A stretch of 64,000 nt of DNA from Bdellovibrionaceae bacterium UBA1609 (lineage in GTDB: Bacteria; Bdellovibrionota; Bdellovibrionia; Bdellovibrionales; UBA1609): the NCBI GenBank assembly GCA_002321895.1, contig DCMZ01000017.1:130220-194219 (forward strand). The letters run 5' to 3'. Below the pieces are notes generated by a model. The model did no database searches and was not told the DNA's origin. It worked only from the letters and a program-made list of their open reading frames with translations. A program made the position numbers and the translations under genes. The first letter of the stretch is position 1, and every line of letters begins with the position of its first letter. Shown here one piece after another: positions 6,070 through 23,870 of the stretch.

Positions 6070-6118
6070 ACTCACAGATTAAAGTTAGTATTCTAGGTAA
6101 GTTGAAAAACTTTGAGAG

Positions 6119-7069: not shown

Positions 7070-7120
7070 ATGCATCCATTGACTCTAATCGTGAAATCAT
7101 TGAAAATTTAACCATTCCAA

Positions 7121-8308
7121 ATGAAGGAGCTCCTTTTGGGACGAATGAATCTAGTCAATAAGTTGCACCAAAAATCTGTAGTAGAAAAACTTCAGCAGAT
7201 TGACTGGAACTTTGGAACCAAAAGCCCTTATGTGGTAGAGCTGGACCCAACCACGGCATGCGACCTAGCTTGCCCCGGCTGCATTAGTGGAGATCTCCTC
7301 AACCAAAAAGACAGCTTCGATAATAGATTTAGTAATGACCGACTCGTAGAAATTTCAAATGAACTCATCGAATCTGGTGTGAAAGCCGTGATTCTCATTG
7401 GCGGAGGAGAACCTCTCAGTCACCCAAAAGTGGGCGAAGTTATAGAAAACTTTGGCAAGAATGACGTTCAGATTGGAATCACCACTAACGGAACTTTTAT
7501 TAAGAAACACTTGGATCTTATTGCCAAATACGCCAGCTGGACTCGGGTTTCAATGGATGCCGGTACGGACGAAACCTTTAAATATTTGAGACCGACTCGA
7601 TCAGGTCGATCAAAATTTAACCCTATTGTAGAAAACATGCGAGAGCTTGCAAAAGTTAAAACAGGTATATTGGGTTATTCCTTTCTCATTAGAACGGCTG
7701 CCGATGGGGATGCCGAGTCTGTTGCAGGCCTTTCCGAGTATGGAAAAATTCAGCTTTCCAATGTGAATGAAATCTTTGAAGCCGCTAAATTAGCTAAAGA
7801 GATTGGGTGTGATTACTTTGAGCCTAAGCCCAGCTATGATGATGATCATAATTTAGTGACCCATAGCGAATATGATATGACTGTGGCTAAAGAGATGATT
7901 CGAAGAGCGCGAGAACTGGAAGCCGATAACTTTAAAGTTTTAGAGTCTATCAATCTTCAAGCCGCTCTGAATAGAGAGCAAATTGGCGATCAACCTAAAG
8001 ACTATACTTCTTGTCCTGCTGCTGACTTGAGGACACTCGTTACTCCTAGTGGTGTGTATGTGTGCCCCTACTTTAGAGGTAATGAAAACTTTAAGATTGG
8101 AGATATGAGAAACCAATCTCTTGAGGAGATGTGGTCCTCTGATCATAGAAAAAACATCATGGACAAACTCGACCCTAGTTGTGACTGTGACAAACTTCAC
8201 TGCATTCGACATGATACAAATTTAGAAGTTTTTGAGATCATGCGAAAAATCGAAGCGGACAAAGAGATTGAAATCCATAAAGTTGATGCAGAAGACCGTT
8301 TTATTTAA
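7121..8308 (+). CDS. radical SAM enzyme
   Basis: CxxxCxxC cluster motif TTACDLACPGC, a GGGEPL glycine-rich SAM motif, and a C-terminal Cys-rich region (CPYFRG...CDCDKLHC). Confidence 0.85.
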   Translation: MKELLLGRMNLVNKLHQKSVVEKLQQIDWNFGTKSPYVVELDPTTACDLACPGCISGDLLNQKDSFDNRFSNDRLVEISNELIESGVKAVILIGGGEPLSHPKVGEVIENFGKNDVQIGITTNGTFIKKHLDLIAKYASWTRVSMDAGTDETFKYLRPTRSGRSKFNPIVENMRELAKVKTGILGYSFLIRTAADGDAESVAGLSEYGKIQLSNVNEIFEAAKLAKEIGCDYFEPKPSYDDDHNLVTHSEYDMTVAKEMIRRARELEADNFKVLESINLQAALNREQIGDQPKDYTSCPAADLRTLVTPSGVYVCPYFRGNENFKIGDMRNQSLEEMWSSDHRKNIMDKLDPSCDCDKLHCIRHDTNLEVFEIMRKIEADKEIEIHKVDAEDRFI

Positions 8309-8334
8309 CCCTTCAACAGGCGGCTAAAACGATT

Positions 8335-9846
8335 ATGGAGCTCAACAGGCAAGCCATCCACGATAAATTGAACAATCTTAATATTGAACACCGCTGTTTT
8401 GTGAGCGGCTCATTTTATGATGGGAAAGAATTAGATCTATTCAATAAAATAAGTCCTATCGATGGAAGAGAGCTGCCTGGGATCGGCATTGCGGATAGAG
8501 AACTTGTCAACCGAGCCGTAAGCGCTGCCCGAGAGAGCTATAGAAATGGAAAATGGGCGCGCACGAAGCTCTCTGAACGCAAGCAAGTCCTACTGAAATT
8601 GGCTGAAAAAATGAGCGAGAGTCGATGGGAATTAGCCCTTCTCGACACCATTGAAACGGGACGAAGTGTAAAAAATTACTACTGTGACTCCATCCCCAAG
8701 GCCATTGAAGTGGTTCGTTGGTTTGCTGAGGCTTCGGATAAGTATCTTGATTTTGCACTTCCTCCGCAGTCCTCTCATAGTGGCACAATAACAAGAGAGC
8801 CTTTAGGCGTCGTGGCCGGAATCACCCCTTGGAACGATCCACTTGTACCTGCAATGTGGAAGCTCGCCCCAGCTTTACTCATGGGTAACTCCGTGATTAT
8901 GAAGCCTGCGGAAGAGTCCTCCTACTCTTTATTAAAAATCGCAGAACTTCTCTCGAAATGTGGCCTTCCGAAGGGAACATTAAGTGTCCTCACTGGAACT
9001 GGAGAGATCACAGGAAAACTTTTGGCGCTACATCCGGAAGTGGATGGAGTGTTCTTTACTGGCTCCAGTGAGGTGGGTAAACTCATACTTCAATACTCGG
9101 GGCAGAGTAACATGAAAAAAGTGGGCCTCGAGTGCGGAGGCAAGTCTCCTTTTATAATTTCCAAAAATTGCTCTAATGTGAAAGCTGCTGCAGAAACCCT
9201 GGCTCAAAATATGTTTTATAATCAAGGCCAAATCTGTTCCGCTCCCTCTCTCGCATTTGTCCATGAAAGCCTTAGAGAAGAATTTAAGGTCCATTTAAAG
9301 ACTATTTTACCCCAGTTTCAACCTGGCGACCCGTTGAATCCTGAATCTAATATTGGTGGAGTGGTCAGCGAACAGCAACGAAACCGCATTCTGACTTATG
9401 TAGAGACTGGCAAGAAAGACCAGGTTGAATTTTATGAACCAGAACCCAAGACACTTGCCTATCCCGATCAGCAATGCGTGAATCCTATTTGTTTTTTCGA
9501 CGCTCCAGAGAGTCACGACCTTTTCAAAGAAGAAGTGTTCGGTCCCGTACTGGTTGTAAATAGCTTTTCTAATTTAGCGGAAGCCGTAAATTCGGCAAAC
9601 AATACAAACTTTGGCTTAGCCGCAAGTATTTGGACCAACGATTTAAACGAATCCTATCACGTGAGCAGAGAGCTGAGAGCAGGTATTGTACATATAAACA
9701 GCTATGGGCAAGATGACATGTCAGCTCCTTTCGGAGGCATTAAGCAATCTGGTCTCGGCAAAGATAAATCATTGTTTGCCTTTGATGAATACACTCACCT
9801 GAAAACCATTTGGACGGAATATCCATCCTCCAAAAGTGTTCTATGA
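8335..9846 (+). CDS. NAD(P)-dependent aldehyde dehydrogenase
   Basis: ALDH motifs FTGSSEVGK, LECGGKSP (catalytic Glu), GQICSAPS (catalytic Cys) and EEVFGPVL. Confidence 0.9.
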   Translation: MELNRQAIHDKLNNLNIEHRCFVSGSFYDGKELDLFNKISPIDGRELPGIGIADRELVNRAVSAARESYRNGKWARTKLSERKQVLLKLAEKMSESRWELALLDTIETGRSVKNYYCDSIPKAIEVVRWFAEASDKYLDFALPPQSSHSGTITREPLGVVAGITPWNDPLVPAMWKLAPALLMGNSVIMKPAEESSYSLLKIAELLSKCGLPKGTLSVLTGTGEITGKLLALHPEVDGVFFTGSSEVGKLILQYSGQSNMKKVGLECGGKSPFIISKNCSNVKAAAETLAQNMFYNQGQICSAPSLAFVHESLREEFKVHLKTILPQFQPGDPLNPESNIGGVVSEQQRNRILTYVETGKKDQVEFYEPEPKTLAYPDQQCVNPICFFDAPESHDLFKEEVFGPVLVVNSFSNLAEAVNSANNTNFGLAASIWTNDLNESYHVSRELRAGIVHINSYGQDDMSAPFGGIKQSGLGKDKSLFAFDEYTHLKTIWTEYPSSKSVL

Positions 9847-10997
9847 AAAAGAAGCTGTTACTCCTTAATGGTTCTCACTCGGAACTCACGCTCATTCAAA
9901 AAGCGATGGAATTGGGGCTAGAGGTAATTACCACCGGCAACGCACCTGATCTCATTGGCCATAAGTTGGCTGATAGGTACATCGCAGCCGATTACACCGA
10001 CAGATCTGCCATTTTAAAAATTGCAAAACAGGAGTCGATCGACTTTATATGCTCCTGCGCCAATGACGGTGGAGCGATCACCGCTTCCTATGTAGCTCAT
10101 GAGTTGGGCCTCCCAGGACATGATGATCCTGAAGTTTGCGAACTCATTCATTTAAAAGATAAATTTAAAAAGTGGGCCTTGGATCAAGGCCTCCCTACAT
10201 CGCCCCTCTTTTCCCCCGAAGAGTCAGCCAACCACCTCCCAGTCATTGTAAAACCAACGGATCTCACTGGTGGAAAGGGTATTAGTGTGGTTCGATCGTC
10301 CTCGGAGCTCAAGTACGCCATTGAACTGGCTAAGAAGGCGTCCCCTTCTAATAGCTATATCGTAGAGAAATTTGTTGAAGGCACTCTCCATTCTTTTTCC
10401 ACCATCGTAAGCCGTCAAACAGTTGTGGCTACACATAGTGATAATGAATTTAGCACCATCAATCCGTTTACGGTTTCAGCTTCCTACAGCCCAGCCCCAC
10501 ATTTAAAGCCAATCAAGAGCTCACTGGTGGAACTGACGGAGTCCATTGCCAAAAATCTTAAGCTGGAGGATGGCATTGTTCATTACCAGTATCTATGGGA
10601 TGGGAAACAATATTGGATTATAGAGATCACACGTCGATGCTCGGGAGACCTCTATCCGGCACCCGCATCTTTGGCTATACAACGTTCTTGGGAGGAAGCC
10701 ATTCTACTCGCCTGCATGGGCCAGCCATTAGACTTCTTATCAGGTGCCGAACAAGAAGGAAATTTTGGTCGAGTGTGTTTTATGGCTCATAAAAATGGTG
10801 AGATTAAAGACTTTAAAATCCATCCTCTTTTAGAGAAAAATGTTGTCGAAACCGTATTTGCCCGCCCCGTAGGCTATTCAATTTCTAATTTCAAAATAGA
10901 AAAATTAGGCGTAGCTATTCTAAAGTTTAGGGATAAACAGGAAGCTGAAGAGAAAGCCAAGTTTATAGACGAATGGACTCAAGTCGTTGTAGACTAG
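9843..10997 (+). CDS. ATP-grasp ligase
   Basis: I prefer the start at ATG 9843 (MKKKLLLLNG), which gives an ATGA overlap with the ALDH stop. It has a pre-ATP-grasp Rossmann-like N-terminus, then KDKFKKWA...VIVKPTDLTGGKGISVV. Confidence 0.7.
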   Translation: MKKKLLLLNGSHSELTLIQKAMELGLEVITTGNAPDLIGHKLADRYIAADYTDRSAILKIAKQESIDFICSCANDGGAITASYVAHELGLPGHDDPEVCELIHLKDKFKKWALDQGLPTSPLFSPEESANHLPVIVKPTDLTGGKGISVVRSSSELKYAIELAKKASPSNSYIVEKFVEGTLHSFSTIVSRQTVVATHSDNEFSTINPFTVSASYSPAPHLKPIKSSLVELTESIAKNLKLEDGIVHYQYLWDGKQYWIIEITRRCSGDLYPAPASLAIQRSWEEAILLACMGQPLDFLSGAEQEGNFGRVCFMAHKNGEIKDFKIHPLLEKNVVETVFARPVGYSISNFKIEKLGVAILKFRDKQEAEEKAKFIDEWTQVVVD

Positions 10998-11003
10998 CAC
11001 CCT

Positions 11004-11855
11004 ATGATGCGTTTACATCCGTGCTACAAAAAACTCGAACTCACTGATTTTGGCTATTGGATTCCCGAGCAGGCTAGCGAAGGTGAAGTGCACTACCCAG
11101 ATGAAGGCCATCAAACCGATATCGATTTTGAGTCCAAATCTTTTTGGTACAAACACAGAAATGACTGTATTGTCGCCGCTGCAAAAAATCACCCTCCCCG
11201 TGATGATGCCCCCGCTTTTGATTTAGGTGGAGGCAGCGGCTATGTCACCAAGGCCATTAATGATGCTGGTATACCAATGACACTCATAGAACCCAATCCA
11301 TTGGGGGCCAGCAAAGGGGTTCGCCGTGGACTACAGAATGTCATATGTTCTCGACTAGAAGATTGCCAAATTTCCAATGACTCTGTGGGAGGGTTTGGCC
11401 TGTATGATGTGGTAGAACACATCGAAGACGACAAAGCTTATATAGACATGCTCCATAAAAAGCTGATTGAAGGCGGCACCATTCACCTTACCGTTCCAGC
11501 CTATCAATGGCTTTGGTCCGCAGAAGATCAAACTGCCTTACATTTTCGCAGATACTCCCTAGAACAAGCGAAACAGCTATTTGATACCACTCAGTTTTCG
11601 ATAGATTATGCCTCCTACTTTTTTCAATGGTTGGTTCCTCCCATATACTTCATTCGATCTCTCCCCCATAAACTGGGTTTACAATCTAAAGAAAATGGCT
11701 ATAAATCAAATATGGATCATCACGAGTCCGGCGAAATGATGGTTAACAACATCATTGGCCACTTTAACTCAAGAGAAGTTAAAACCATTCAAAAAAATAA
11801 AACATTGAGTTTTGGTGCCAGCTGCATGGTGATCGCCAGAAAGACGGACCCATAG
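11004..11855 (+). CDS. class I SAM-dependent methyltransferase
   Basis: Motif I FDLGGGSGYV, then LYDVVEHIEDD and GGTIHLTVP (Methyltransf_11/23-like). Confidence 0.75.
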   Translation: MMRLHPCYKKLELTDFGYWIPEQASEGEVHYPDEGHQTDIDFESKSFWYKHRNDCIVAAAKNHPPRDDAPAFDLGGGSGYVTKAINDAGIPMTLIEPNPLGASKGVRRGLQNVICSRLEDCQISNDSVGGFGLYDVVEHIEDDKAYIDMLHKKLIEGGTIHLTVPAYQWLWSAEDQTALHFRRYSLEQAKQLFDTTQFSIDYASYFFQWLVPPIYFIRSLPHKLGLQSKENGYKSNMDHHESGEMMVNNIIGHFNSREVKTIQKNKTLSFGASCMVIARKTDP

Positions 11856-11874
11856 GGCCCTCTGACACATTCAC

Positions 11875-12534
11875 TTATTTTGATTTTAATTTGGCTTGAA
11901 GTAGCATCACTCCCACCAAAGATAATATGTAAATGGGCAAAATATGCCAAACTAACTTGATGGCACCAGTGACCATAGGACAGTAAAACTGCAGCGCAAA
12001 AGAACCCATAGAAGTGGCCGCTAATATGCTAAAAAACAAAGCCATAGGTTTATTCATCACATAACCCTTGGTGACCATTCGATGAATAGATATCCCCACC
12101 GGAATGGCCGACAGAGTACTGACTGTCAAACAGGTGTATCCCAAAAACATGGTTTCCACAGCAAACTCAGGCAAAAGGAAACTATCCAACACTGTCATTC
12201 CCAAAACACTCCAAAGCAGAAGAGTCCCAAAACTCAACAACCTAGATAATGTCGGGTCAATGCCTGGTCTTGAGATCATCAAAGCCGTTAATCCTGCGGC
12301 TAAAGAAGATGACAGCAGCAGGGCCTGTTCAATAATAAACTTTGCATCCAAAACTCTCTCAACAGAAAAATCAAAGCCGGCGAAAATCAAACTCAACAAA
12401 CCAGCGACAGCCAAAGACGCCACTACAGATGGGACAAACCAACGCAAAATGGTGGGCCCAATGGGAGATAACACCTTCACAGGCTTCAACTGCGAAGATA
12501 AATCACTTATTAAATCAGCACGAGATTTTCCCAT
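11875..12534 (-). CDS. NrsF/DUF1109-type membrane anti-sigma factor
   Basis: 219 aa with six TM segments. The N-terminus is ADLISDLSSQLKPVK. It lies immediately downstream of, and abuts, the ECF sigma gene, as in the sigF-nrsF arrangement. Confidence 0.55.
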   Translation of the reverse strand: MGKSRADLISDLSSQLKPVKVLSPIGPTILRWFVPSVVASLAVAGLLSLIFAGFDFSVERVLDAKFIIEQALLLSSSLAAGLTALMISRPGIDPTLSRLLSFGTLLLWSVLGMTVLDSFLLPEFAVETMFLGYTCLTVSTLSAIPVGISIHRMVTKGYVMNKPMALFFSILAATSMGSFALQFYCPMVTGAIKLVWHILPIYILSLVGVMLLQAKLKSK

Positions 12535-13076
12535 TAAACTTCCAGCTCCTTAAAAATCACTTTGTACCCTCTATGGGCGGCCACCTTGACGGCCGAGACG
12601 GTCATATTCATCTCCGTGGCCGTCTCCTTTAAAGACTTACCGTCAAATTTAAGCAAAGTTACAATTTTTCTTTGATCTTCGGAAAGCTTGGACATGGCTC
12701 GATCCAAAGCCTGCAGGTCCAGAGCGCGGATTTCCGCATCCGCGGCCTGCTCTGGGATAGAGTCTGCATCTACCTGAATTTCCACACTTTTTTTAATTTT
12801 CCTGAGGTGATCGTTAAGCCGATTTCGCGCAATGGCATAGACCCAAGGTTCCACCGGATATTCCGAATTGTACGTGTGCAAAGCTTTATGAATATTAAGT
12901 AAGACATCCTGGACTAAGTCTTCGACCAAATCACTGGCTTTGAGACGCTTATACATAAACCTCTCAACCAATTGCCCCACCCGCTCAAGCATCTGCATAT
13001 AGGCCTGGCTATCTCCCGCCTGGGCTTTCACTATGAGCTGGGTCAGCTCACTTCGACTTGTATCTTTATCGCTCAA
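12534..13076 (-). CDS. ECF (group IV) sigma-70 family sigma factor
   Basis: Region 2 is DLVQDVLLNIHKAL...PWVYAIARNRLNDHLRK. Region 4 is QRKIVTLLKFDGKSLKETATEMNMTVSAVKVAAHRG. The track ORF extends to 13277. I prefer TTG 13076 (AGGAA 9-10 nt upstream), because the longer starts (13190, 13277) overlap the GNAT gene. Confidence 0.75.
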   Translation of the reverse strand: MSDKDTSRSELTQLIVKAQAGDSQAYMQMLERVGQLVERFMYKRLKASDLVEDLVQDVLLNIHKALHTYNSEYPVEPWVYAIARNRLNDHLRKIKKSVEIQVDADSIPEQAADAEIRALDLQALDRAMSKLSEDQRKIVTLLKFDGKSLKETATEMNMTVSAVKVAAHRGYKVIFKELEV

Positions 13077-13602
13077 AGCTTTGATTTCCTGAAAATGATT
13101 GATTCCAAAAATGGTACTGTAGCACCAATTCAAACCGTTCGCTATGAAGTGGTAAAGACATAAAACAATTTGGACCAAATTCAACCTCATGGTTGATCCA
13201 GTTTGAAGTTTGTTCAAATCCGAGGCGTTGGTAGAAACCCATGGTTTCTTGACGAGCAAGAGTCCACACAAAATCACGCCCCATCACTTCCCCTAATTTA
13301 ATGATTCTAGCCGTTAACTTATTAGCAATACCAAGTCCCCTATAATAGGGATCTACATAAACCCCTCTTAATCGAAATCCATTATCATGAGTGGCGAATC
13401 CACTGATCACACCAACGATACGCTGGCTTCGATCATCCACGGCTTTGAAGAAAAAGGGGTCAGCCAAAAGAAGCTTTTTATCGTATCCACCACCAAATCG
13501 AATAGGATTTGTCGGTTCAATGCCCGATTTACGGCCTTTCCAAAGATGGTTTGCCCAAATCGGGTAGACTTCGTCAAAATTTGTCGAACTAATGCGTACC
13601 AT
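13066..13602 (-). CDS. GNAT-family N-acetyltransferase
   Basis: Acetyl-CoA motif LRGVYVDPYYRGLGIANKL. 178 aa. Confidence 0.7.
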   Translation of the reverse strand: MVRISSTNFDEVYPIWANHLWKGRKSGIEPTNPIRFGGGYDKKLLLADPFFFKAVDDRSQRIVGVISGFATHDNGFRLRGVYVDPYYRGLGIANKLTARIIKLGEVMGRDFVWTLARQETMGFYQRLGFEQTSNWINHEVEFGPNCFMSLPLHSERFELVLQYHFWNQSFSGNQSFER

Positions 13603-13722
13603 AGTGGTAAAAATTGACCCATTCCTAGACTAAAATCAACGACCGTCTGTCTCGTTTGACAAAAAAAAGTCCAAATCCACCATATTGCTACCCACACCTC
13701 TAAAAACTGGTAACATATTGAC

Positions 13723-15087
13723 ATGGCTCATATTTTAAAAACACCAATGATATTCGTATTCCTATTTTTCTTGGCTGGGACTGCACCGCTGACGTCTTTT
13801 GGCCAAGATCTAGATGAACCTGCAGCGGCAGAAACCGTAGAGGGGGAGAACAACTCCTCTGAAAGTTCTGAAGAAGCTGATGGTGAAGCTGCAGAGGACT
13901 CTGCAAGCAATGAAGAGGCGGGCGCTGCCACAGAAGAGGCCAAAGCAGAACCTACTGGCCCCACTCCTATTGAGGTTCAGTGGTTCCGACCAACTCTCCA
14001 ACCGGGCAGCAAAAAGAACCGGAAATTGGTTAAACTGAGCGGAAAAGTGAATAAAGTTGCACGGGTTTATGTGGGTAAAAAGTCGATTCCCACTATTGTA
14101 AAAAAGCGGGTCCGCAAATTCCCCACCAAAAGAGCCTTCAAAGGTGCAAACAATCCCACCAAAAAAGGCTATGGAACCACCACTGACGAATATGGTTTTT
14201 TTGAATTAGAACTAGAGTTGCCTAGTTATCCCGTACAACTTCCCTTAAAAATTTACGGACAAGACAAAACCCGATCAAATGTTGTCTTAAAACTCTATGT
14301 CGACAAAGACGAACAAGATGTGATCGATCGGGACAAGGTCACTCCAAGACTTCGTCGGGACAAAACTCTTGGTTTATGGCTTGGTGTAGGAGCTAACTAT
14401 TTGCAGTACTCTCAGGATACGGATATTTCTGAGTTAGAATACTCTAGCTTTGCAGCACCCTCTTTCTTTGTAAAGGGTGAGTATACATTCAACCGCCAAT
14501 GGGCTTTGAGCATTGAGGCCTCTCACACCCCTGGTACCGCCGAGAATGATGACAACAATGCCTTTGTATCTTTAGATGAAGATTACAGCTGGACGATTAT
14601 TGATGTAAATGCCCATTACTTCCCAAGAAGTTGGGAGCAGAAAAAGTTTCTATTTGGAAAATATGCTGACTACGGTCTCCGGTTCGGTTTTCAACATCAA
14701 CTCGTTCCATTCATTGAAACCGCAGGAACCGTGGGTTCACTCAATGCCATTACCATTGAGCAAAAAGGAATCACCTATTTAACCGGTGGGGGATTTTTTA
14801 AAGCTTATGATAATTCAAATTGGGTTTATGAATTGTTCATGAGACTTCAAATCCCTGTTGCTGGACCTTCTGAGTTCACAGTTAAACCTAGCTTTGGATT
14901 TGATGGTTCTGTCGGCGCCTACTACCTGTACAATGCTAATCTTCGCTTCGGAATGTTTTGGTACGGACAGTATCAATCACTTGATTTCGAAGGATTGGAA
15001 GAAGAGTATTTTCCACCGGATGAAATCTCAGGTAACCAAGGTTTACTCTTCTCGAACATTGAGTTTCGAGTGGGATATGAGTTTTAG
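13723..15087 (+). CDS. secreted protein with acidic N-terminal region and probable C-terminal outer-membrane beta-barrel
   Basis: Signal peptide MIFVFLFFLAGTAPLTSFG. An E/A/S-rich acidic stretch (aa ~30-75). The C-terminal half has alternating aromatic/hydrophobic strands and ends in ...FRVGYEF (terminal Phe). Confidence 0.5.
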   Translation: MAHILKTPMIFVFLFFLAGTAPLTSFGQDLDEPAAAETVEGENNSSESSEEADGEAAEDSASNEEAGAATEEAKAEPTGPTPIEVQWFRPTLQPGSKKNRKLVKLSGKVNKVARVYVGKKSIPTIVKKRVRKFPTKRAFKGANNPTKKGYGTTTDEYGFFELELELPSYPVQLPLKIYGQDKTRSNVVLKLYVDKDEQDVIDRDKVTPRLRRDKTLGLWLGVGANYLQYSQDTDISELEYSSFAAPSFFVKGEYTFNRQWALSIEASHTPGTAENDDNNAFVSLDEDYSWTIIDVNAHYFPRSWEQKKFLFGKYADYGLRFGFQHQLVPFIETAGTVGSLNAITIEQKGITYLTGGGFFKAYDNSNWVYELFMRLQIPVAGPSEFTVKPSFGFDGSVGAYYLYNANLRFGMFWYGQYQSLDFEGLEEEYFPPDEISGNQGLLFSNIEFRVGYEF

Positions 15088-15109: not shown

Positions 15110-18100
15110 CTATTTAAACTTCTTAAAGAAAGAACTGTGCAGTTGATAGAACTTCTTGTAGTTCTCTTCGGTTCTTAATAACTCCAAAGCCTCGCGCATA
15201 AACCGATCTTCTCTCTCAAGCATAGAAAGTCGTGCAGACTCCTCCAGCTCTGGAATAATTTGACTACGAGCTTTTGCTAAATCACTAATAAGTACAGATT
15301 CCATGGCAACTAAACGAGGAACGATCTCTTCATTCATCTTAAGCTTCTCATTAACAAAAGTGTTCACCTCAAGAATCCAATCCCCCTGATACACTTCATC
15401 CGTCACTTGATCAATGTAGCCCGTCGTATAGAGAACATTATCAGCATAGGTGGATTTAAACTCGGCAGTCATTTCAGGCCTAAACTTTCTAGCCTCTTCT
15501 CTCTCTGCAATCTTCTTCTTTGTATACTTCTCTTGAGCTGTCTCACCTGAGATGAGAGCTGCGAGTCCTCTATCCACCAAGTCAAACTTGACGGTAATAA
15601 AAATTAGAAATATCGCTAATCCTGTTCCTAAAATTATGGACGAAATTCGAATCAAATGCTTTTTATTCTCAACCACGCCTTGAACTGTAGTCTCCGCTAT
15701 CGATCGAATCTGTTCGGAGGTCTCTACGTCATCCGGTGTAATCACTTGGCGCAGAAAGCGATCCGTCCTCTGCAGGGCTCCTTCGCCAGCGTTTAAGCTC
15801 TCAAGCTCCTGCTCAACTAACGGCTTTAATGTGTCCAAAATTTGTCTTCTAACTACTTTAAATCTCTTTTCTTCCTCACGCCGAACCTTGTTCAGCTCAG
15901 ATTCTAACTCCGAAACCTTGTTCACGCGAATTTTGGTCAACTCTAGCTCAAGCTCTTGCTTTGCCTCTTTACGCTCTTGCTCGAGGATCCCCTCTAAACT
16001 GGATTCTTTTTTGACCATCTCTTGCTCTCGAGCCTCTAACTCTCCTGTCAGTCTCTCGGCAGCTTCTTCCAGCTCTTCCCTTCTAGCTATCAGCTCCTGT
16101 ATCTTAGAACTCTCATTTTCCGATTCTTTATTCAGTCTCTGTAAATCTAGCTGATGTCTTTCTACATCCACTCGATACTGCTGCTCTTCGTTTTTAGTTT
16201 CTTCTAGCACTATTTTGTTTTGATCAAGTGCCTCTTGTAGGCTCTTATATTCCTTTTCTAAATCCAGTTTTTTAATTTCTATTTTCTTTTGTTCTGCCAA
16301 CAATTCGCTTTTTTTAACATTATGCTGGGCATCCAGAGCTTTCATTTTGTCTGCGACTTCAGTTTTATATGCCTTTAACGAACTCGCCGACTCATCCTTT
16401 TCACGCTCAAAAGCCAATCTTTGAGAATCCAATTTGTGGATTTCGGACCGTAACCCTTGAACCGTCGCTTCTGATTGTTCTGTTGCCTTTCCTAGCTTTT
16501 CTAAATTTTTAAACCCATCATCTAACTCCAGTTCGAGCTGACTTTTCTCTTTTTTGAATTGCTGAATTTCAGCTTCTAAAGATTGATAGCGCTCCCTAGC
16601 ATCTTTAAACTCTCTATCTAGATGATCCTGTTTTGCTTGAAATTCTCTTTCAAGCATTTCTTCTTTACTCTCTTTATGTTTATCCAACTGCTGAATATCA
16701 ATTTCAACTTGATGCATTTGGTTTTTTAAACCATTCAACTCTGCTTCTAGTTTTGTGCGATAGCTAGTGACTTCTGTCTTTACGTATTCGCTTTGGTTTC
16801 TCACTTTTTCTTCAATTTCTAAATTGATATGTTCTAACTCATTATTCAGAGCGAATTTCTTTTTCTCGATTTCTTCTTCGAAATCCTCTAGATGTTTCTG
16901 CAGAAGAACTCTTTCAGATTCCAATTCTTCTTTTTCTGCTTCAAAGCTCTTTTCTATTTCTTTTCTCGAACTAGCGACTAAACTATTAAATGATTCAAAA
17001 TCGAGCTCTGTCTGGCTACGCTTCCCCTGCAGATCCGACTTAAACATCTCGAAATCATTCTCTAGATCTATTTTTTCTGATTTAATATTTTCAATTTCAT
17101 CCAAAAGAGAAGATTTCTCTCCCTGCAACTCTTCGAGCTTGTGGTTGAGTTTTGCCATTTCGGTATTGATCGCGCTCACCTTATCATCATGTTGCTCAAT
17201 GATCTGCTCTTTAAGTTCTAATTCATTACCCTTTTCTTCGATCTCTCTATGTAATTCCTCTAGCTGATGGGTTGCTGAAGCACGATTATCTTCTAATTCT
17301 TTAATATCGCCTTTAACTTTCTCTTCTGACGATTTAAGTATATTTAGTTCATTAATTTTATTGTTGTATTCCTGATTGGCTTCACCGATTTCCTTCTTTT
17401 TTCCTTCAACAGTTCTTAAAATCCCTTTTAGATTCTCTTCCTGCTCTAGAATTCCACTCTTACGAATAGCTAGCTCATCCTCTAATTCATCTAACTTTTC
17501 AGTTAGACCCTTCATTCGGATAACAAGTTGAGATCTTTGCTTTTCCTGATCCCTATCATATTGGGCCAATTCATTCTTCTTGGTTACAACCAGCTGATTA
17601 AATTCATCGAACTGATGTTTTGCCTTCTCATGATCTAAATCTAACTGTTTATGTTGCTCTAAGATCTTCTCGTTAGCTCCAACGTAATATTGGAAAGTAT
17701 CTATCTGTTGGTTGAGCTCTTTTGTCTGCGAGGCTATTTCACTAGTGATTTCTTGAAGCGCTGCCTTATTTTCAGTGAGAACTTTAGTTTGGATAGTAAT
17801 ATCACCTTGAAGAACGGAAAGCTTTTCTCTGGCTTTATCAGCCTCCTCTAAGGCTTCCTTTTCATCACCAAGATGCTTTTTTCTCCTTTCATCAAGCTCT
17901 CTGATAGCTTCATGAGTTTCATTCCTAAAGGTTTCTAACTGACTGTCCAAACTCTCTTTTTCAGCCTGGGCAGACTCCCTGTCCGTCTCCAACTGAAGTT
18001 TGGTATTCTCAATGTTATTTTGCAAATCAACAATTGTTGATTTGTGTGACTTAATTTCCTCTAAGACTTTATTTTTATCTTCGATGACCTTTTTCTTCTC

Positions 18101-18925
18101 TTCATAGAGAACTTGAATCTTCTCTTTTTCGTTCTCCTGGTCCTTTTGAAGATGATCAATGTCATTTTCTAACTCTTTAGATTTATTCTGGTAAGCAATA
18201 ACAGCCGCTTCTAACTGTTCTAACTTAGAATTATTTTCCTTTAGTTTTTTCTCTAGGCCTTCACGAGCACGACTCAGATTATCCACCTGAATCTGAACAT
18301 TCTTTTTCTTGGTTTCCAAGCCCTTCAGTAATGCCTCAGCTCTTCGAATATCATGAAAAGCTTCCTTCTCTTCCTGTGACGCCAGACTATTAAAATTTTG
18401 CTCTTTCTTTACAGATCCTGGTGGATCCACCAAGGATGCATCTTCAAACGAAAGCCCATCATCATCCCGAGGCTCGATATAGCTTTCTTCCGTGTCATCA
18501 GAAACAGGCTCAACCAACTGAAGTTCCGCCTGATCCCCTCCCTCTTTCAAATTTGATTCTAAGCCATTCTCTGATGTGGACTGTGGACCGCCAATAGATA
18601 CTTTAAAATAATAAAGTTGAGGTCCACCAAAACCAATCTTATCTTCAGGCATAACTTCTTGCGGCTGCGAGGGCTCTATGCGCTTGCCATTCAGATAGGT
18701 TCCATTTGATGAATTCAAGTCCGTAACGTAGATCCGTCCGGAGATTTGCTCGATTTTAAAATGCTTTCGACTGAGCTCAGAGTGATTGAAAACTGCATTA
18801 GCACTAGACCCACGTCCAACCACGAAGGTGGACTCGTGCACTAAGCGCACTTCATCACTGGTGGGCATACAGTAAGTTATTTCAATAGGCAATGCACCTA
18901 GATCCCTGGTGGCAGCCTCGCTCAT
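15110..18925 (-). CDS. FHA-domain protein with ~800-aa coiled coil, one C-proximal TM helix and ~190-aa extracytoplasmic tail
   Basis: N-terminal FHA signature VVGRGSSANAVFNHSELSRKHFKIE...YVTDLNSSNGTYLNGKRI. Heptad-rich E/K/L/Q sequence runs from aa ~185 to ~1010. TM helix is LIRISSIILGTGLAIFLIFITV. Confidence 0.85.
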   Translation of the reverse strand: MSEAATRDLGALPIEITYCMPTSDEVRLVHESTFVVGRGSSANAVFNHSELSRKHFKIEQISGRIYVTDLNSSNGTYLNGKRIEPSQPQEVMPEDKIGFGGPQLYYFKVSIGGPQSTSENGLESNLKEGGDQAELQLVEPVSDDTEESYIEPRDDDGLSFEDASLVDPPGSVKKEQNFNSLASQEEKEAFHDIRRAEALLKGLETKKKNVQIQVDNLSRAREGLEKKLKENNSKLEQLEAAVIAYQNKSKELENDIDHLQKDQENEKEKIQVLYEEKKKVIEDKNKVLEEIKSHKSTIVDLQNNIENTKLQLETDRESAQAEKESLDSQLETFRNETHEAIRELDERRKKHLGDEKEALEEADKAREKLSVLQGDITIQTKVLTENKAALQEITSEIASQTKELNQQIDTFQYYVGANEKILEQHKQLDLDHEKAKHQFDEFNQLVVTKKNELAQYDRDQEKQRSQLVIRMKGLTEKLDELEDELAIRKSGILEQEENLKGILRTVEGKKKEIGEANQEYNNKINELNILKSSEEKVKGDIKELEDNRASATHQLEELHREIEEKGNELELKEQIIEQHDDKVSAINTEMAKLNHKLEELQGEKSSLLDEIENIKSEKIDLENDFEMFKSDLQGKRSQTELDFESFNSLVASSRKEIEKSFEAEKEELESERVLLQKHLEDFEEEIEKKKFALNNELEHINLEIEEKVRNQSEYVKTEVTSYRTKLEAELNGLKNQMHQVEIDIQQLDKHKESKEEMLEREFQAKQDHLDREFKDARERYQSLEAEIQQFKKEKSQLELELDDGFKNLEKLGKATEQSEATVQGLRSEIHKLDSQRLAFEREKDESASSLKAYKTEVADKMKALDAQHNVKKSELLAEQKKIEIKKLDLEKEYKSLQEALDQNKIVLEETKNEEQQYRVDVERHQLDLQRLNKESENESSKIQELIARREELEEAAERLTGELEAREQEMVKKESSLEGILEQERKEAKQELELELTKIRVNKVSELESELNKVRREEEKRFKVVRRQILDTLKPLVEQELESLNAGEGALQRTDRFLRQVITPDDVETSEQIRSIAETTVQGVVENKKHLIRISSIILGTGLAIFLIFITVKFDLVDRGLAALISGETAQEKYTKKKIAEREEARKFRPEMTAEFKSTYADNVLYTTGYIDQVTDEVYQGDWILEVNTFVNEKLKMNEEIVPRLVAMESVLISDLAKARSQIIPELEESARLSMLEREDRFMREALELLRTEENYKKFYQLHSSFFKKFK

Positions 18926-18941: not shown

Positions 18942-19892
18942 CTAAGCTGAGATTTTTCTCAGCTGTTCTTTTTTCTTTCGCAACTCAATCTTATCTTTTG
19001 CTAACTGCTCTTCTAGGGCCTTAGATGCCAACACTTCCATTGGGTCTCTATGCTCGTCAAACTCAGGAATATCTTCAGGTAATTTATTGTCTGTACTTCT
19101 GTTCCACAACACATCTAGAGAATTCTCAAATTTATCAACAATGGAAACAAATAGTTTTTCCGGACTGGTGGTCGTATTAACTACAGTCATCACCACAGAC
19201 AAAACTATACCTAAAATCGAAGAACTCATTGAAAAGGAAATCTTCACTAAGAATTTATCCATAATCAATTTCGCGCCTTCTGGATCCGCTAGATCCATGG
19301 TCCCCAATTCAGGCAAAGCTGCCATAATTCCCAAGAAGGTACCAAAGATACCACTAATAATAAAAATACCTGGTAAAATGTTTAATACATCATTAAACAA
19401 TGAAGCCGGCATAACCCCGAACACTTTCGAAAAACTTGCATTATTTGAAAAAACATTTTTAGAGATATCTTTTAACTTTGGAATATTACTTGTGTACTTC
19501 AAATACTTGATTTGTTTTAAAGTATCTCTTACTAAAATGGCACAACCATGTTGAATGAGGAACACCCTATCACTCATGGACATTATGAAGTCGCTATTTC
19601 TTCTTTTGTGCAACGATCTCTTAATAAACAATTCATAATAGGTTTTCTCTAGAATATGCTTAGTAAGAACAAAGAACGACATATCCCCTCTGTCATCACT
19701 TTCATCCATATACTCATGAACTCTTCGTTCGAATTCTTTTGCAAACCAATGTTCTCTTTTCACTGTGAAGAAAATCAGTCCTCTAAGAACCACTCCCGCA
19801 ATGAATAGAAAACCCATAGTTGGCATCAACATATCTGTTGAGAACTTCACTAAAAAGTTGACTAATCCTTCGACCATCTCTTGGGTTATCAT
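18942..19892 (-). CDS. MotA/TolQ/ExbB-family proton-channel-like protein (3 TM)
   Basis: TM1 MPTMGFLFIAGVVLRGLIFF, then a long cytoplasmic loop, then TM2/3 carrying the family-like motif LPGIFIISGIFGTFLGIMAAL ... SSSILGIVLSVVMTVV. The C-terminal tail is charged. Confidence 0.6.
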   Translation of the reverse strand: MITQEMVEGLVNFLVKFSTDMLMPTMGFLFIAGVVLRGLIFFTVKREHWFAKEFERRVHEYMDESDDRGDMSFFVLTKHILEKTYYELFIKRSLHKRRNSDFIMSMSDRVFLIQHGCAILVRDTLKQIKYLKYTSNIPKLKDISKNVFSNNASFSKVFGVMPASLFNDVLNILPGIFIISGIFGTFLGIMAALPELGTMDLADPEGAKLIMDKFLVKISFSMSSSILGIVLSVVMTVVNTTTSPEKLFVSIVDKFENSLDVLWNRSTDNKLPEDIPEFDEHRDPMEVLASKALEEQLAKDKIELRKKKEQLRKISA

Positions 19893-19902: not shown

Positions 19903-21609
19903 TTAGTTTTTAAGGTTAAATTTAATAATCACTCTTTGATACTTCTTACAGTCCGTTGCCTTACAGAAATCCGATGCTGACATTGTTGAGGCTGTTCGCC
20001 TGTCCGTTTTTATCTCATTTGCCACATCAAGATATCCTCGACCCGTAACTTTAATAATTTTTCTAAGCCGTCTTTGCTCAGAAAAAGTCATTTTTCGTGT
20101 ATCAAAAATATGATCAAATATGGCTTTTGCCCGTCTATAACTCAAATCAAGGTTGTAGCTCGTCGCTTTTTGTTCAGCAGGATCTAGACTATCCGGATCC
20201 ACAAACTTACCTCTGTAAGTAGGTGAGGCAAATCCTACGATTTCAACATTGGCGATGTTCTTCGCAATCTTTTTTCTCTTGAATAGACTCTGAGCGTATA
20301 CTGGGACGGACTTATCAAGAATCTTCTGCATATTATTTTTAAGATCCGCTTTACCCGTGTCAAAGTATTCGTCTCCAAATTCGAGAATAACTTCACCGGT
20401 CTTACCATCAATTTTGGCCTTGATTCCGGCCTTTTTAAAATTCTTCTTAATATCCGAGATCAACTTCTTACGTGCATCTGCTTTTGCTCGCTCCTTCGCC
20501 AGCTTAGCTTTAAACTCTTTCGTTAAGTTGGATATCTTAGACTCTTTAGAAGCCACTTCATCTTTTGTCTGCTTAAGTGCCGCTTGCAGCTGAGCCTTTC
20601 TAGCAGCTTCAGCCTGCAACTTTGAACTTAGCTTTGAGGATTTTGAGGACTCTGCCTTCAACTGTTCTTGAAGTTCGGATTTCCGTTGAGCTTCAGCCTG
20701 AAGTTCGTTCTCTACCTCTTGAGCTCTCTGCTTCTCTCTCTGGAGTTTTGCTTGGAGCCTCTGCCTTCTTTGAGCCTGAGTTTCTATTTCCTTGTTCGCC
20801 TTTTTCAACAGATTCTCTGCCGACGTTAACTCTAGCTCAATTCTATTCATCTGTTTTTCAACAGTTTTGTTTTGATCCTTTAAGGCATTAATTCGCTCTT
20901 GTGACTTTACCTTCAACTCAGCTACCCGCCGACGCATTTTAGCCTTTGAAAGCTTAGCTTCTCTACGCTCATTCTGAAGCTCCATAATGCTCGCTTGCAA
21001 ATCCATATTGATGGCTTGAATCTTTTCATTGTTCTCAATGATTTGATTCTCTTTTTGGTTTATATCTTGATTCAAGTCTTTTATCTGCTCACGCTTCTCC
21101 GCTATGATTTTCTGTTTCTGCTGAATGGTGATATCTTTTTTCTTGATGACCGTATCACGCTTTTTTATTCTGGCCGATGCAACCATATTTGAATTAATGA
21201 TGTTTTTAATCATCTTTTGATACTTATTAAGAGCAGCTTTCTTTTTCTGGTTCTCAGAAGCTTGCTTCATCAAGTCTTCACTTTCCTGTTGAGCCTCCTC
21301 TTGTAGCAAACTCAACTTACCCATCAATTCATTATAACTTTCTTGCTCGTCCTGACTGGCACCCTTCTGCAAGTAGTCCTCTTTAAGAGTTTCGTAAACT
21401 TTGTTTTGCTGACGAAGCTCCGTTACCTCTTTAACCAGCTCTTGATATTCAATGTTGTTTTGCAAGCTGTTGGTTCCACCACGTAAACTTGTAGTTACAT
21501 AAAGTAAAAGAAATACAACGGACAAAACCATAAACAAATCACTATAAGAAGCCCATTGATTGCCTCCCTCTTCGTGCTTTGCTCTTAACTTGTCGTAATC
21601 AAAACCCAT
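19903..21609 (-). CDS. MotB/OmpA-like protein with ~350-aa coiled-coil insert between TM helix and peptidoglycan-binding domain
   Basis: N-terminus NQWASYSDLFMVLSVVFLLLYV (MotB-type TM with Asp). Residues ~50-400 are coiled coil. The C-terminus is OmpA-like: VEIVGFASPTYRG...NLDLSYRRAKAIFDHIF. Confidence 0.7.
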   Translation of the reverse strand: MGFDYDKLRAKHEEGGNQWASYSDLFMVLSVVFLLLYVTTSLRGGTNSLQNNIEYQELVKEVTELRQQNKVYETLKEDYLQKGASQDEQESYNELMGKLSLLQEEAQQESEDLMKQASENQKKKAALNKYQKMIKNIINSNMVASARIKKRDTVIKKKDITIQQKQKIIAEKREQIKDLNQDINQKENQIIENNEKIQAINMDLQASIMELQNERREAKLSKAKMRRRVAELKVKSQERINALKDQNKTVEKQMNRIELELTSAENLLKKANKEIETQAQRRQRLQAKLQREKQRAQEVENELQAEAQRKSELQEQLKAESSKSSKLSSKLQAEAARKAQLQAALKQTKDEVASKESKISNLTKEFKAKLAKERAKADARKKLISDIKKNFKKAGIKAKIDGKTGEVILEFGDEYFDTGKADLKNNMQKILDKSVPVYAQSLFKRKKIAKNIANVEIVGFASPTYRGKFVDPDSLDPAEQKATSYNLDLSYRRAKAIFDHIFDTRKMTFSEQRRLRKIIKVTGRGYLDVANEIKTDRRTASTMSASDFCKATDCKKYQRVIIKFNLKN

Positions 21610-21803: not shown

Positions 21804-23870
21804 TTAGGAGACCTTTTTCTTGCTGTAATCCATCTTCCTCTTCTTTTTTCCAAGAGCAAAACTCAGCAGCCCACCTTTTTTATAGAACTTGTCACCTGAT
21901 TCTACAGTAAGATCTCCAGAGCCAAGTATTAAACCCCGAACCTTTTCCATAATTGATTCTAGCTTTTGAGCCTCTTCGTTCATTGATTTGGCTAGAGAAT
22001 CAGAATCATGTGCCAATGAAAGGTTCTTATGAGTCAAATCGTCGATATTTCGCATAGCTTCGTTGACTTTCTTAATGCCTGCTTCTTGTTCTGCAGTGGC
22101 ACCAAGTATATCTCGCACCTTTTGAGTCATCGAAGTTAGGTCTTGAGCAATTTCACTAAATTTTTCAGTAGCTTCATTTGCAACCCGATCACCCTGAGAA
22201 ATCTTTTCACCGATTTCACCCACCACATTGAGAACCTGTGTCTGTGACTCTTTAATAAGTGAATCAATATCCTTTGCAGCTTCTCCTGAAAGTTGAGCCA
22301 AATTACCAACTTCCTCCGCAACTACTGCAAAGCCCTTACCATGCACCCCTGCTCTCGCGGCCTCTATCGAAGCATTGAAGGCCAACAATTTAGTATTGAA
22401 AACAATTTCATTGATCACGTTTGTTTTTTCAGAAATCGTCTGGATGATCTTCGCCATCGATTCAAGATCTTTATTTGAATTCTGGATAAAACCCATAGAG
22501 GCCTGCATTTGATTCATAATATGAGATCCATCTTTTGACTTTTGATTGACACCATCTGCGGACTGTAAGGATTCTTCTACATACTTATTTGTATTTGAGA
22601 GCATAGACATCATTTGATCTAGAGCCGCCATAGTCTCTTGAACAGCCTCTTGCTGCTGCCGTGCTGCATCTGAAAGTTCTGAGCTCACATTGTTCAAGTT
22701 TCCACTTGTCGATATTGAAGAAGCTGATCTTTGCTTTAAATTATTGGTTTCAAACACCAACTTGTCTGATTCCAAAGAAGTGATTTTCCAAGAAAGTAGT
22801 AAAAACCCACAACAGATAAGTACCACTAAGCCATAGAATACATTTGTTTGGCTTGTTAATGAACCCGTCAACTCAGACTCTTCAATTTTAATTATTGTTG
22901 CCCAACCTAATTCAGAATGGGTGTCGGATTCCAGACTTGTATAGCCAACGTAAGCTCTATGTTTTCCCTGAAAAGAATTTGATGAAAGTAAATACCCTGA
23001 ATGACTATTCAGCGCTTCTGTAACTCCAGCCATCTTTTCACGACTCAGATTTCGCGAACCAAGTTCGTTTCGATCATATCCTACATCCATGGAACCTTTA
23101 CCGTAGGGTTCGTAAGAAAATATCAAATTTCCACTTTTTGACACCAGGTAGAACTCGGCCTTATCCACCCCTTTAGTCTTTAAAGATTCATAAAGATTTT
23201 GATAAGAACTGGCTACCCAACTAAAATTTGTTCTTAGTGTGAGAACTCCAATCGTATTTCCTGATGAATCTTTTACACTTGTAGAAAAACTCAACCCATA
23301 AACACTCTTACCCAATGCCTTAGCGGATATAGGATCAAATTGTGCGTTCTCTAAATAGGTGCCTGATCTGTTCAACTCTAAATCATTTGAATATTTTCCT
23401 GATAGACTACTTGTAAACCAGGGCATGGATGAATAATTGATAGACATCAAAACCGCTTTATTCACATTCTCGTTTTTGGAATTTCTGGAGTTGGAAGCTA
23501 CATACTCTCCATTTGCCGAAACGTATAGCAGCAAGTCGTAGGCACTATCAGAGGAGACATATTTATCTAAAGCCTTCTGGATACCTTCCACATCCCCAGT
23601 CTCATAAACTCTATTTTGAGCAAAGTTCTGAACACCCCAATAGTGTTTCTCAAATTTCTGTCCAATGTGACTAGAAATGCTAATAGCATGACCTTGGACA
23701 CTGGAACCGGCAGTCCCCTTCTGTTCGCTGTAGAGGAAGTAGACTTGAATCACTGCTACTACAGTGAACACTGTAAGCATTGAACCTACCATAAGTAGAA
23801 TTTTTGCTTTTAGCGAAGATAATTTGTATTTGTCTAACCAACGATTTACCAGAGCCATTAACTCCTCCAT
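21804..23870 (-). CDS. methyl-accepting chemotaxis protein with periplasmic Cache-like sensor
   Basis: Two TM helices flank a ~300-aa periplasmic domain. Highly conserved signalling hairpin: KLLAFNASIEAARAGVHGKGFAVVAEEVGNLA. Confidence 0.9.
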   Translation of the reverse strand: MEELMALVNRWLDKYKLSSLKAKILLMVGSMLTVFTVVAVIQVYFLYSEQKGTAGSSVQGHAISISSHIGQKFEKHYWGVQNFAQNRVYETGDVEGIQKALDKYVSSDSAYDLLLYVSANGEYVASNSRNSKNENVNKAVLMSINYSSMPWFTSSLSGKYSNDLELNRSGTYLENAQFDPISAKALGKSVYGLSFSTSVKDSSGNTIGVLTLRTNFSWVASSYQNLYESLKTKGVDKAEFYLVSKSGNLIFSYEPYGKGSMDVGYDRNELGSRNLSREKMAGVTEALNSHSGYLLSSNSFQGKHRAYVGYTSLESDTHSELGWATIIKIEESELTGSLTSQTNVFYGLVVLICCGFLLLSWKITSLESDKLVFETNNLKQRSASSISTSGNLNNVSSELSDAARQQQEAVQETMAALDQMMSMLSNTNKYVEESLQSADGVNQKSKDGSHIMNQMQASMGFIQNSNKDLESMAKIIQTISEKTNVINEIVFNTKLLAFNASIEAARAGVHGKGFAVVAEEVGNLAQLSGEAAKDIDSLIKESQTQVLNVVGEIGEKISQGDRVANEATEKFSEIAQDLTSMTQKVRDILGATAEQEAGIKKVNEAMRNIDDLTHKNLSLAHDSDSLAKSMNEEAQKLESIMEKVRGLILGSGDLTVESGDKFYKKGGLLSFALGKKKRKMDYSKKKVS

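Follow-up and report, generated by a model that had tools for sequence, protein, structure and literature searches.

Why should a very long coiled-coil protein, with an FHA domain at one end and a membrane helix near the other, be encoded beside a gene that resembles a motor subunit? This question is raised by a locus of Bdellovibrionaceae bacterium UBA1609, in a 64,000-nucleotide (nt) stretch of contig DCMZ01000017.1 (positions 130,220 to 194,219), which we analysed as a whole and call the window. A first-pass annotation, made from the letters of the window, had described there a 1271-amino acid (aa) FHA-domain protein translationally linked to a MotA-like gene, and it did not recognise the arrangement. 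We found that the 1271-aa protein is encoded by the last gene of a chromosomally fixed three-gene module, which also encodes the A- and B-subunits of a ZorAB-type motor. The module itself is well supported. In addition, we propose with moderate confidence that the 1271-aa protein (the FHA protein below) is the third, accessory subunit of this motor and serves as its mechanically coupling arm; the mechanism is one that we infer.

The three genes lie on the minus strand in the order B-subunit, A-subunit, FHA protein, with gaps of 10 and 16 nt (Table 1). The suggested translational link held in part. The FHA gene adjoins the A-subunit gene in an operonic arrangement, but it starts 16 nt past the A-subunit stop with no overlap, has its own GAGG ribosome-binding site, and is not strictly coupled. 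Furthermore, the arrangement is not an oddity. In a scan of relatives with one genome per species, the three-gene cassette was found in at least 245 species-level genomes, and the best 80 of these 245 were used for the analysis of loci. Nearly all of the carriers among these 80 are labelled Bdellovibrionota; two cultured ones are Bacteriovorax sp. BSW11_IV and Peredibacter sp. HCB2-198, where the locus is found at about 1.371-1.392 Mb of NZ_CP174607. Relatives of the A-subunit at 50-62% identity number in the hundreds, and the named ones belong to Bdellovibrionales, Bacteriovoracaceae, Halobacteriovoraceae or Oligoflexia. The B-subunit gene was immediately upstream of the A-subunit gene in 71 of 71 testable loci. 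A gene for the FHA domain, the C-terminal domain or both was downstream of the A-subunit gene in 65 of 70 loci by BLAST, and two more loci had such a gene with a degenerate FHA domain. No conserved neighbour was found beyond the three genes, and the recurrent ones were generic (histidine kinases, short-chain dehydrogenases, cyclophilin, ABC transporters, and a DEAD helicase). The linkage is thus kept while the flanks turn over, which argues for a physical complex. The first-pass annotation had allowed that the link to a motor gene might be missing elsewhere; it is conserved in other genomes. In the window, the neighbours of the cassette are housekeeping genes (ribosomal protein L25, Pth, YchF, RNase PH, PRPP synthetase, RadA, Opp, and SLT). 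Judged from these sequences, the cassette appears to be a vertically conserved three-gene module and not a defence island.

The gene next to the FHA gene had been called MotA-like. Instead, it encodes a ZorA-type subunit, paired with a ZorB-like subunit. The A-subunit shares the topology of ExbB, TolQ, and ZorA: it has three transmembrane (TM) helices, the first two of which (TM1 and TM2) are separated by a large cytoplasmic domain. It ends 75 aa past TM3 and has no tail, and most of its orthologues are about 305-390 aa long. The only family-level matches were ZorA models of NCBIfam and PADLOC, all under their curated cut-offs (the best NCBIfam score was 32.9 bits vs a cut-off of 250). In addition, the protein carries a precomputed weak Pfam label, 'ZorA-like_t1' (PF28082), so curators have seen the relationship to ZorA. 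When a profile of 19 orthologues was compared with all PDB sequences, only ZorA chains were matched (8qyh, 8qyd, and 8vvn). The AlphaFold2 model (predicted local distance difference test, pLDDT, 75) had E. coli ZorA as its best Foldseek match, followed by TolQ and ExbB, both with a probability of about 1.0. Flagellar MotA was rejected: the Pfam profile MotA_ExbB (PF01618) scored 11.6 bits vs a cut-off of 22.9, there are three TM helices and not four, and no MotA chain was among the PDB sequence matches.

Residues that matter in ZorA were traced by alignment of hidden Markov models. T147 and S184, which form the ion filter, and also D217 and Y220 have been assigned their roles in ZorA (PMC11946911). 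In the A-subunit, T147/S184 correspond to T185/S225, and D217/Y220 correspond to D260/W263 within an LDxLW motif; T185, S225, and W263 are invariant in the family. Furthermore, the short cytoplasmic stretch after TM3 carries, at aa 278-292, a near-invariant acidic motif, FDEHRDPxEALAExA, and the cytoplasmic domain has the invariant stretches KxLLEKTYYE and RRxxD...DRxF. The acidic motif or these stretches could be a docking site for a partner.

The B-subunit gene had been overlooked by the first-pass annotation. The N-terminal TM helix of its 568-aa product bears Asp24 (SYSDLF), and about 340 aa of heptad coiled coil (peak 3.5 residues) lie between this helix and the OmpA-like domain. The protein matched PADLOC ZorB1 (E = 1e-29), for which the PADLOC library has no curated cut-off, and NCBIfam ZorB2 (E = 1e-7, 32.4 bits vs a cut-off of 400). 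MotB was rejected, with 12.8 bits for MotB_plug vs a cut-off of 24. The peptidoglycan-binding residues of ZorB (Y-N-x-x-L-x-x-x-R) are present as Y485, N486, L489, and R493. By reading the sequences, we found the TM Asp in all 66 orthologues. The motif (Y/F)NxxLSxxR(A/G) and exactly two C-terminal Cys were also present in 66 of 66, which fits a periplasmic, wall-binding domain. The orthologues range from 503 to 806 aa in length, with a periplasmic coiled coil of 280-580 aa. Taken together, the A- and B-subunits carry the residues that define 5:2 proton motors, namely the TM Asp of B and the Thr/Ser pair in TM2/TM3 of A.

The FHA protein itself is largely as it had been described. It is a real open reading frame (ORF), and its FHA domain is canonical (PF00498, E = 4e-17, 62.8 bits vs a cut-off of 20.7) with a complete signature: G37 R38, S52 R53 K54 H55, and N74 G75 T76. 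The long coiled coil that precedes the helix is also real. It comprises about 860 residues with a Fourier peak at 3.53 residues (power 1.04 vs 0.28 +/- 0.03 for shuffles, about 25 standard deviations), and its fully extended length would be about 128 nm. The single C-proximal TM helix has a mean Kyte-Doolittle hydropathy of 2.43. In the orthologues, a hydrophobic segment is found at the equivalent place and is preceded by basic residues; the counts of Lys and Arg are 4.1 before the helix vs 2.2 after it (p = 1e-5). This positive-inside bias indicates that the N-terminus is inside and the C-terminus outside, and the C-terminal domain is predicted to be periplasmic. Thus, a membrane-tethered topology with cytoplasmic FHA domain and coiled coil, one TM helix, and an extracytoplasmic C-terminal domain is supported. 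The non-coiled domain after the helix is present, but it has about 159 aa and not the 190 that had been given.

The orthologues of the FHA protein range from 456 to 1548 aa, and the differences come from a variable coiled coil of roughly 250 to 1300 aa. SMC, Rad50, and JetC profiles matched the protein, all far below cut-off. An SMC/Rad50-type ATPase, for which the test is Walker A/B heads flanking the coil, was rejected, since these models cover coiled-coil stretches only (61.6 bits vs a cut-off of 567).

Table 1. Features of the three-gene cassette; positions are those of the window (aa, amino acids; TM, transmembrane)
Feature	Position	Strand	Basis
ZorB-like B-subunit gene, 568 aa: TM, coiled coil, OmpA-like peptidoglycan-binding domain	19903..21609	-	ZorB profiles
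ZorA-type A-subunit gene, 316 aa: 3 TM, tail-less	18942..19892	-	ZorA profiles, PDB profile, fold match
FHA/coiled-coil/TM/C-terminal-domain gene, 1271 aa, last of the cassette	15110..18925	-	ORF and translation, orthologue position
FHA domain, aa 35-100	18626..18823	-	Pfam PF00498
Linker, aa ~101-180, acidic, Pro/Gly-containing, no heptad signal	18386..18625	-	Translation and heptad scan
Heptad coiled coil, aa ~181-1040, several short breaks	15806..18385	-	Heptad scan and Fourier
Single TM helix, aa 1091-1112 (LIRISSIILGTGLAIFLIFITV)	15590..15655	-	Hydropathy
C-terminal all-helical domain, aa 1113-1271, conserved, predicted periplasmic	15113..15589	-	Alignments, AlphaFold2, profile search

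The C-terminal region is the best-conserved and family-defining part of the FHA protein. Its motif is F.P....FK.SYTDNVLYT..Y......W.L.LN...L.LSE..V..F.S.E..L, with the variants SY(T/A) and W.L.(L/V)N. The AlphaFold2 model, built on a shallow alignment of 6 sequences, is all-helical and confident (pLDDT about 90). A domain search of this region had been recommended, and it returned no relatives: Pfam gave zero matches in any of 41 orthologues, the profile search of PDB sequences gave only designed helical or TM proteins, which we took as spurious TM-helix matches, and Foldseek gave none below E = 1 in PDB or viral models. Word-indexed homologue searches with the region retrieved just 1 and 5 proteins. 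The family became visible through an exhaustive HMMER search with a 6-sequence profile. With clustering at 50% identity, this search gave 615 clusters, of which 543 had E <= 1e-10. In every case, the domain lies at the very C-terminal end of its host protein. Most host proteins are 450-1600 aa long, and in 46 of 56 sampled members a Pfam FHA domain is found at the N-terminus. In the databases, these proteins are named 'FHA domain-containing protein' or 'hypothetical'. The C-terminal domain is the hallmark of a new domain family that has no recognisable relatives.

At the other end of the protein, the picture is mixed. The FHA residues were tallied in 77 distinct orthologous N-termini. The key residues were kept in 49 (R), 53 (S), and 50 (H) of them, which is canonical for about 65%. 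About 20 of the 77 (about a quarter) are FHA-like but lack Arg, Ser, His, and Asn-Gly-Thr, for example IIIGSDKRCDLVL...LEIKVSGGNIFVKEVGARAQIYLD, and the domain is missing from a few. The degenerate group is mostly labelled Bacteriovoracaceae and includes Peredibacter. The canonical residues make phospho-threonine binding plausible here and in most lineages. Thus, the phospho-threonine-dependent recruitment that had been proposed may hold for the 1271-aa protein, but it is not universal. As had been stated, no Ser/Thr kinase or phosphatase was found in the window: no Hanks-kinase or PP2C motif was present in any ORF of at least 100 residues, and no kinase or phosphatase Pfam domain was found in the 52 scanned of the 59 ORFs of at least 120 aa.

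Several known systems resemble parts of the cassette. One of them is GltG of the Myxococcus gliding machinery. Like the FHA protein, it is bitopic, spans the inner membrane with a single TM helix, and has a cytoplasmic FHA domain at its N-terminus. This helix is reported to associate with AglR, which is the A-subunit of the 5:2 motor in that machinery (PMC11761067), and the FHA domain of GltG has been proposed to bind a cytoplasmic scaffold (PMC3169522, PMC11761067). However, in GltG, which has about 640 aa, the long part is a disordered periplasmic stretch with a TonB-C-like domain at its end. In the FHA protein, the long part is the cytoplasmic coil, and what lies in the periplasm is short, helical, and novel. 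In addition, the AglRQS motor is of the TolQR/ExbBD type, with ExbD-fold B-subunits that are not ZorB/OmpA-like. GltG identity was rejected: the NCBIfam GltG model matched the FHA region only (E = 1.7e-4, 20.3 bits vs a cut-off of 650), the C-terminal domain has no TonB_C match, and no glt neighbours were found in the scanned ORFs of the window.

TolQR-TolA and ExbBD-TonB share with the cassette a logic of three components: an A-subunit with three TM helices that forms pentamers, a B-subunit that forms dimers and bears a TM Asp, and a third, single-pass protein with its N-terminus inside and its C-terminus outside. However, the TM helix of TolA and TonB is N-terminal and their long part is periplasmic, the FHA domain and cytoplasmic coil are absent from them, and the B-subunits of these systems have no OmpA-like domain. 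Mycobacterial FhaB/FipA (Rv0019c) and YscD/EscD/PrgH of type III secretion systems (T3SS) also combine a cytoplasmic FHA or FHA-like domain with a single TM helix. The FHA region matched NCBIfam FhaB_Rv0019c (E = 3e-10) and, overlapping the FHA match, Yop-YscD_cpl (PF16697, 34.1 vs 33.2 bits). The similarity is nevertheless confined to the FHA fold, and those proteins have no comparable coil and no link to a 5:2 motor. A T3SS YscD/EscD protein was rejected, as there are no T3SS genes in the window and the C-terminal domain is all-helical, with no ring-building periplasmic domains. By membership, the cassette is not MotAB, TolQRA, ExbBD-TonB, or Agl-Glt.

How could the three proteins work together? 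We propose that the A- and B-subunits would assemble as A5B2 into a motor that is anchored to the wall and either rotates or steps. The FHA protein would sit in the membrane of the motor, N-terminus inside and C-terminus outside, and would dock on it through the TM helix, the periplasmic helical domain, or both. The docking surface may be the stalk of the B-subunit, the invariant periplasmic loop of the A-subunit with the sequence LPELGxMDL, or both. A dimeric heptad coil of up to about 130 nm would then project into the cytoplasm, with the FHA domain at its tip as a phospho-dependent hook. The FHA protein would thus be a trans-acting counterpart of the ZorA tail, which acts in cis, much as GltG, TolA, and TonB serve their motors, and the state of the motor would be coupled to a distant partner through this arm. 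In this organism, the FHA tip would bind a phospho-threonine protein, and the coupling would be gated by a Ser/Thr kinase whose gene lies elsewhere; this phospho-gate would have been lost from the clade labelled Bacteriovoracaceae. A 5:2 motor that has a partner with a single TM helix finds precedents in the TolAQR and TonB-ExbBD structures among the fold matches of the A-subunit.

Two other ways in which the coils might take part were rejected. Mimicry of the ZorA tail by a non-heptad periodicity does not fit, as the coils of the FHA protein and the B-subunit both peak at 3.5 and show no hendecad signal. Pairing of an acidic FHA-protein coil with a basic B-subunit coil does not fit either, since the orthologues do not keep the difference in charge that the window shows (medians of +0.017 vs -0.03 net charge per residue), and the two coils are predicted to be separated by the membrane.

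Some points weigh against the coupling arm. The association of the FHA protein with the motor is a prediction from the linkage of their genes, and rotation and the 5:2 stoichiometry are assumed from homology. The sequence of the TM helix is poorly conserved and has no TolA/TonB-like SHLS-type motif, and docking through this helix is therefore unsupported. The coiled-coil lengths of the FHA protein and the B-subunit do not co-vary (Spearman 0.006); because the lengths are free and unrelated, exact geometry is apparently not required. Phospho-gating would be dispensable for the core function, because the phospho-binding residues are lost in about a quarter of the orthologues. In a few genomes (loci L011, L053, and L087), the third gene is absent from its usual place or relocated. 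Furthermore, the stalk of the B-subunit would be about 50 nm long if extended, which far exceeds the gap of about 9 nm between the inner membrane and the wall in E. coli (PMC11946911), and our model leaves this coil unexplained.

The main rival is a coupling in the reverse direction, which we consider somewhat unlikely. Here, the cassette would be an envelope machine in the style of TolQRA or AglRQS-GltG, with a periplasmic output through the B-subunit stalk and the periplasmic domain of the FHA protein. This output may act on peptidoglycan, on the outer membrane, on a complex for gliding or adhesion, or in prey invasion, and the FHA domain and the coil would be only a regulatory or positional tether. 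The periplasmic domain is indeed better conserved than the FHA domain and the coiled coil, and all orthologues of the B-subunit combine the unusual periplasmic coil with a competent peptidoglycan-binding motif. In addition, GltG offers a precedent, with FHA inside, the TM helix on the motor, and the work done outside, and the FHA phospho-residues are dispensable in one clade. However, the periplasmic domain is all-helical and has about 160 aa, in which no TonB-C, OmpA, or other envelope-binding fold was detected, and no gene for an outer-membrane or periplasmic partner is conserved beside the cassette. A cytoplasmic coil of 860 aa would also be a heavy investment for a mere regulator.

It is improbable, in our opinion, that the FHA protein is a passive scaffold. 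Such a scaffold would be a filament of the cytoskeleton or a polar landmark, anchored in the membrane and comparable to TipN, EzrA, or coiled-coil-rich proteins, and the A- and B-subunits would be a peptidoglycan-anchored membrane tether or gated ion channel to which it is not mechanically coupled. Canonical heptads of freely varying length are typical of spacer or scaffold proteins, and the unconserved sequence of the TM helix would also fit such a protein. However, Asp24 of B and T185 and S225 of A are invariant at an overall identity of 50-62%, which argues for a working motor and makes a purely passive scaffold unlikely. The linkage of the three genes, kept in 65-71 of about 70 loci, speaks against a scaffold as well.

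The relationship to Zorya has to be weighed last. The compared systems are ZorAB of E. coli (type I, 8qyd) and of Shewanella (8vvn/8vvi). The alignment of the A-subunit with ZorA covers TM2 and TM3 and reaches into the first part of the cytoplasmic domain, and the Thr/Ser ion filter and the LDxL(Y/W) motif are common to both. The B-subunit shares with ZorB the TM Asp, the OmpA-like peptidoglycan-binding domain with its motif, and Cys pairs, and a very long cytoplasmic coiled coil is part of either system. However, in the cassette the coil is a separate protein and lies N-terminal to its own TM helix, and it is a heptad coil, whereas the ZorA tail is described as right-handed. ZorB joins its TM helix to the peptidoglycan-binding domain without a linker (PMC11946911), whereas the coiled coil fills this interval here. 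The gene order is B-A and not A-B. None of the partners ZorC, D, E, F, and G is found at the cassette, and the third gene has no match to a PADLOC Zor effector. The distribution also differs, since the cassette is fixed across the best 80 of the 245 genomes and Zorya is patchy. Overall, the cassette fails four defining features of Zorya: the tail, the linker-less ZorB, the effectors, and the curated scores. Thus, although A and B are closest to ZorA and ZorB in sequence and fold, and Zorya signals via a long cytoplasmic coiled coil (PMC11946911), we consider it very improbable that the cassette is a new anti-phage Zorya type, in which a separate coil replaces the ZorA tail and the FHA domain recruits an effector encoded elsewhere, because the three proteins have no ZorC-, ZorD-, or ZorE-type match and no nuclease or helicase domain, the NCBIfam scores are far under the curated cut-offs, tail and linker are inverted with respect to ZorA and ZorB, the distribution at high identity is not patchy, and the flanks are housekeeping genes.

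We therefore keep the coupling arm as our preferred explanation. The conservation of the cassette, its apparently vertical inheritance, and its housekeeping neighbourhood point to a core function in the envelope, in polarity, or in the predation cycle rather than in phage defence. It is possible, and we suggest it only tentatively, that the cassette represents an unrecognised functional class of 5:2 motor in Bdellovibrionota, in which a wall-anchored core organelle of the ZorAB type, with no role in immunity, would use a bitopic, phospho-gated arm as its output or clutch. The cytoplasmic coil of this arm would measure up to about 130 nm, and the novel periplasmic domain would join the arm to the motor.

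Variants of the third gene were seen in several loci. In the nearest relative (L007, A-subunit 90% identical), it is present at 10969-14681 as two ORFs, one of 924 aa with the FHA domain and the coiled coil and the other of 280 aa with the TM helix and the C-terminal domain. The same is seen in three other loci (L010, L016, and L042), and either a frameshift in the assembly or a true split could account for it. The short database proteins P0121-P0125 are perhaps fragments of this kind. In a Pseudobacteriovorax metagenome-assembled genome (MAG, L053), a long gene with the C-terminal domain (5288-7909, minus strand) lies upstream of the B/A pair and is divergent from it. In L087, an unannotated 1236-aa gene (123-3833, minus strand) further upstream on the opposite strand may be a displaced third gene. 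In addition, some genomes, namely a MAG labelled Bacteriovoracaceae and one labelled Proteobacteria, have two paralogous cassettes each. The pairs are L074 with L085 (contig JAIYDL010000016) and L023 with L059 (same MAG). The third gene of L085 has just 467 aa, and its FHA domain is half-degenerate. A contig binned as 'Thioalkalivibrio sp.' (L036) carries a cassette whose ORF coordinates and scores are identical to those of a Bdellovibrionales MAG (L037) from a shared sediment study, and it is probably mis-binned.

Two genes flank the cassette in the window. Upstream, at a distance of 194 bp, there is a gene for a 688-aa methyl-accepting chemotaxis protein (MCP) with a weak dCache match and an MCPsignal match (21804-23870, minus strand). 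A weak terminator-like hairpin lies at its stop, and the gene is probably a separate transcription unit. An MCP gene adjoins the cassette in the nearest relative as well, lies a few kb away in L017 and L056, and is further away in L053 and L084; none was detected in the others. Downstream, a convergent gene for a 454-aa protein with a weak match to outer-membrane beta-barrels (13723-15087, plus strand) ends 22 bp from the stop of the FHA gene, and it is conserved in L001 and L007 only. Functional linkage of the cassette to either gene was rejected, as the arrangement holds in the nearest relative only.

Elsewhere in the window, genes for a family-2 glycosyltransferase, a radical-SAM/SPASM protein, an aldehyde dehydrogenase, an ATP-grasp protein, and a methyltransferase (6119-11855, plus strand) may form a small modification or biosynthetic cluster. 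An extracytoplasmic function (ECF) sigma factor gene is followed by an NrsF-type anti-sigma gene (11875-13277, minus strand). Three ORFs on the minus strand had no Pfam match at E <= 1e-4, namely those of 762 aa (52825-55113), 541 aa (2959-4584), and 397 aa (1663-2856).

Flagella, gliding, TonB uptake, Tol-Pal, and Zorya immunity all run on ion-driven 5:2 motors, and each new accessory partner of such a motor has shown a new use of the proton-motive force. A literature search on comparative genomics of predatory bacteria, ZorA/ZorB-like proteins, stators, and FHA proteins gave no description of the cassette. What we rate as new is a 5:2 motor with a new accessory architecture, together with a new domain family; a B-subunit on a long periplasmic coiled-coil stalk has not been seen before in combination with a separate FHA-tipped cytoplasmic coil. 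Bdellovibrionota is a phylum of mostly predatory bacteria, and these predators are studied as living antibiotics. The cassette is a candidate, open to genetic tests, for a machine of the envelope or of polarity that has not been described in them. In addition, it bears on the origin of the Zorya motor. If the reading as a core organelle is true, Zorya would be related to a housekeeping motor whose signalling tail is a separate and exchangeable protein. Either Zorya could have arisen from this motor, or the motor could have been domesticated from Zorya. The same reading would mean a new route by which mechanical work or information derived from the proton-motive force is carried deep into the bacterial cytoplasm.

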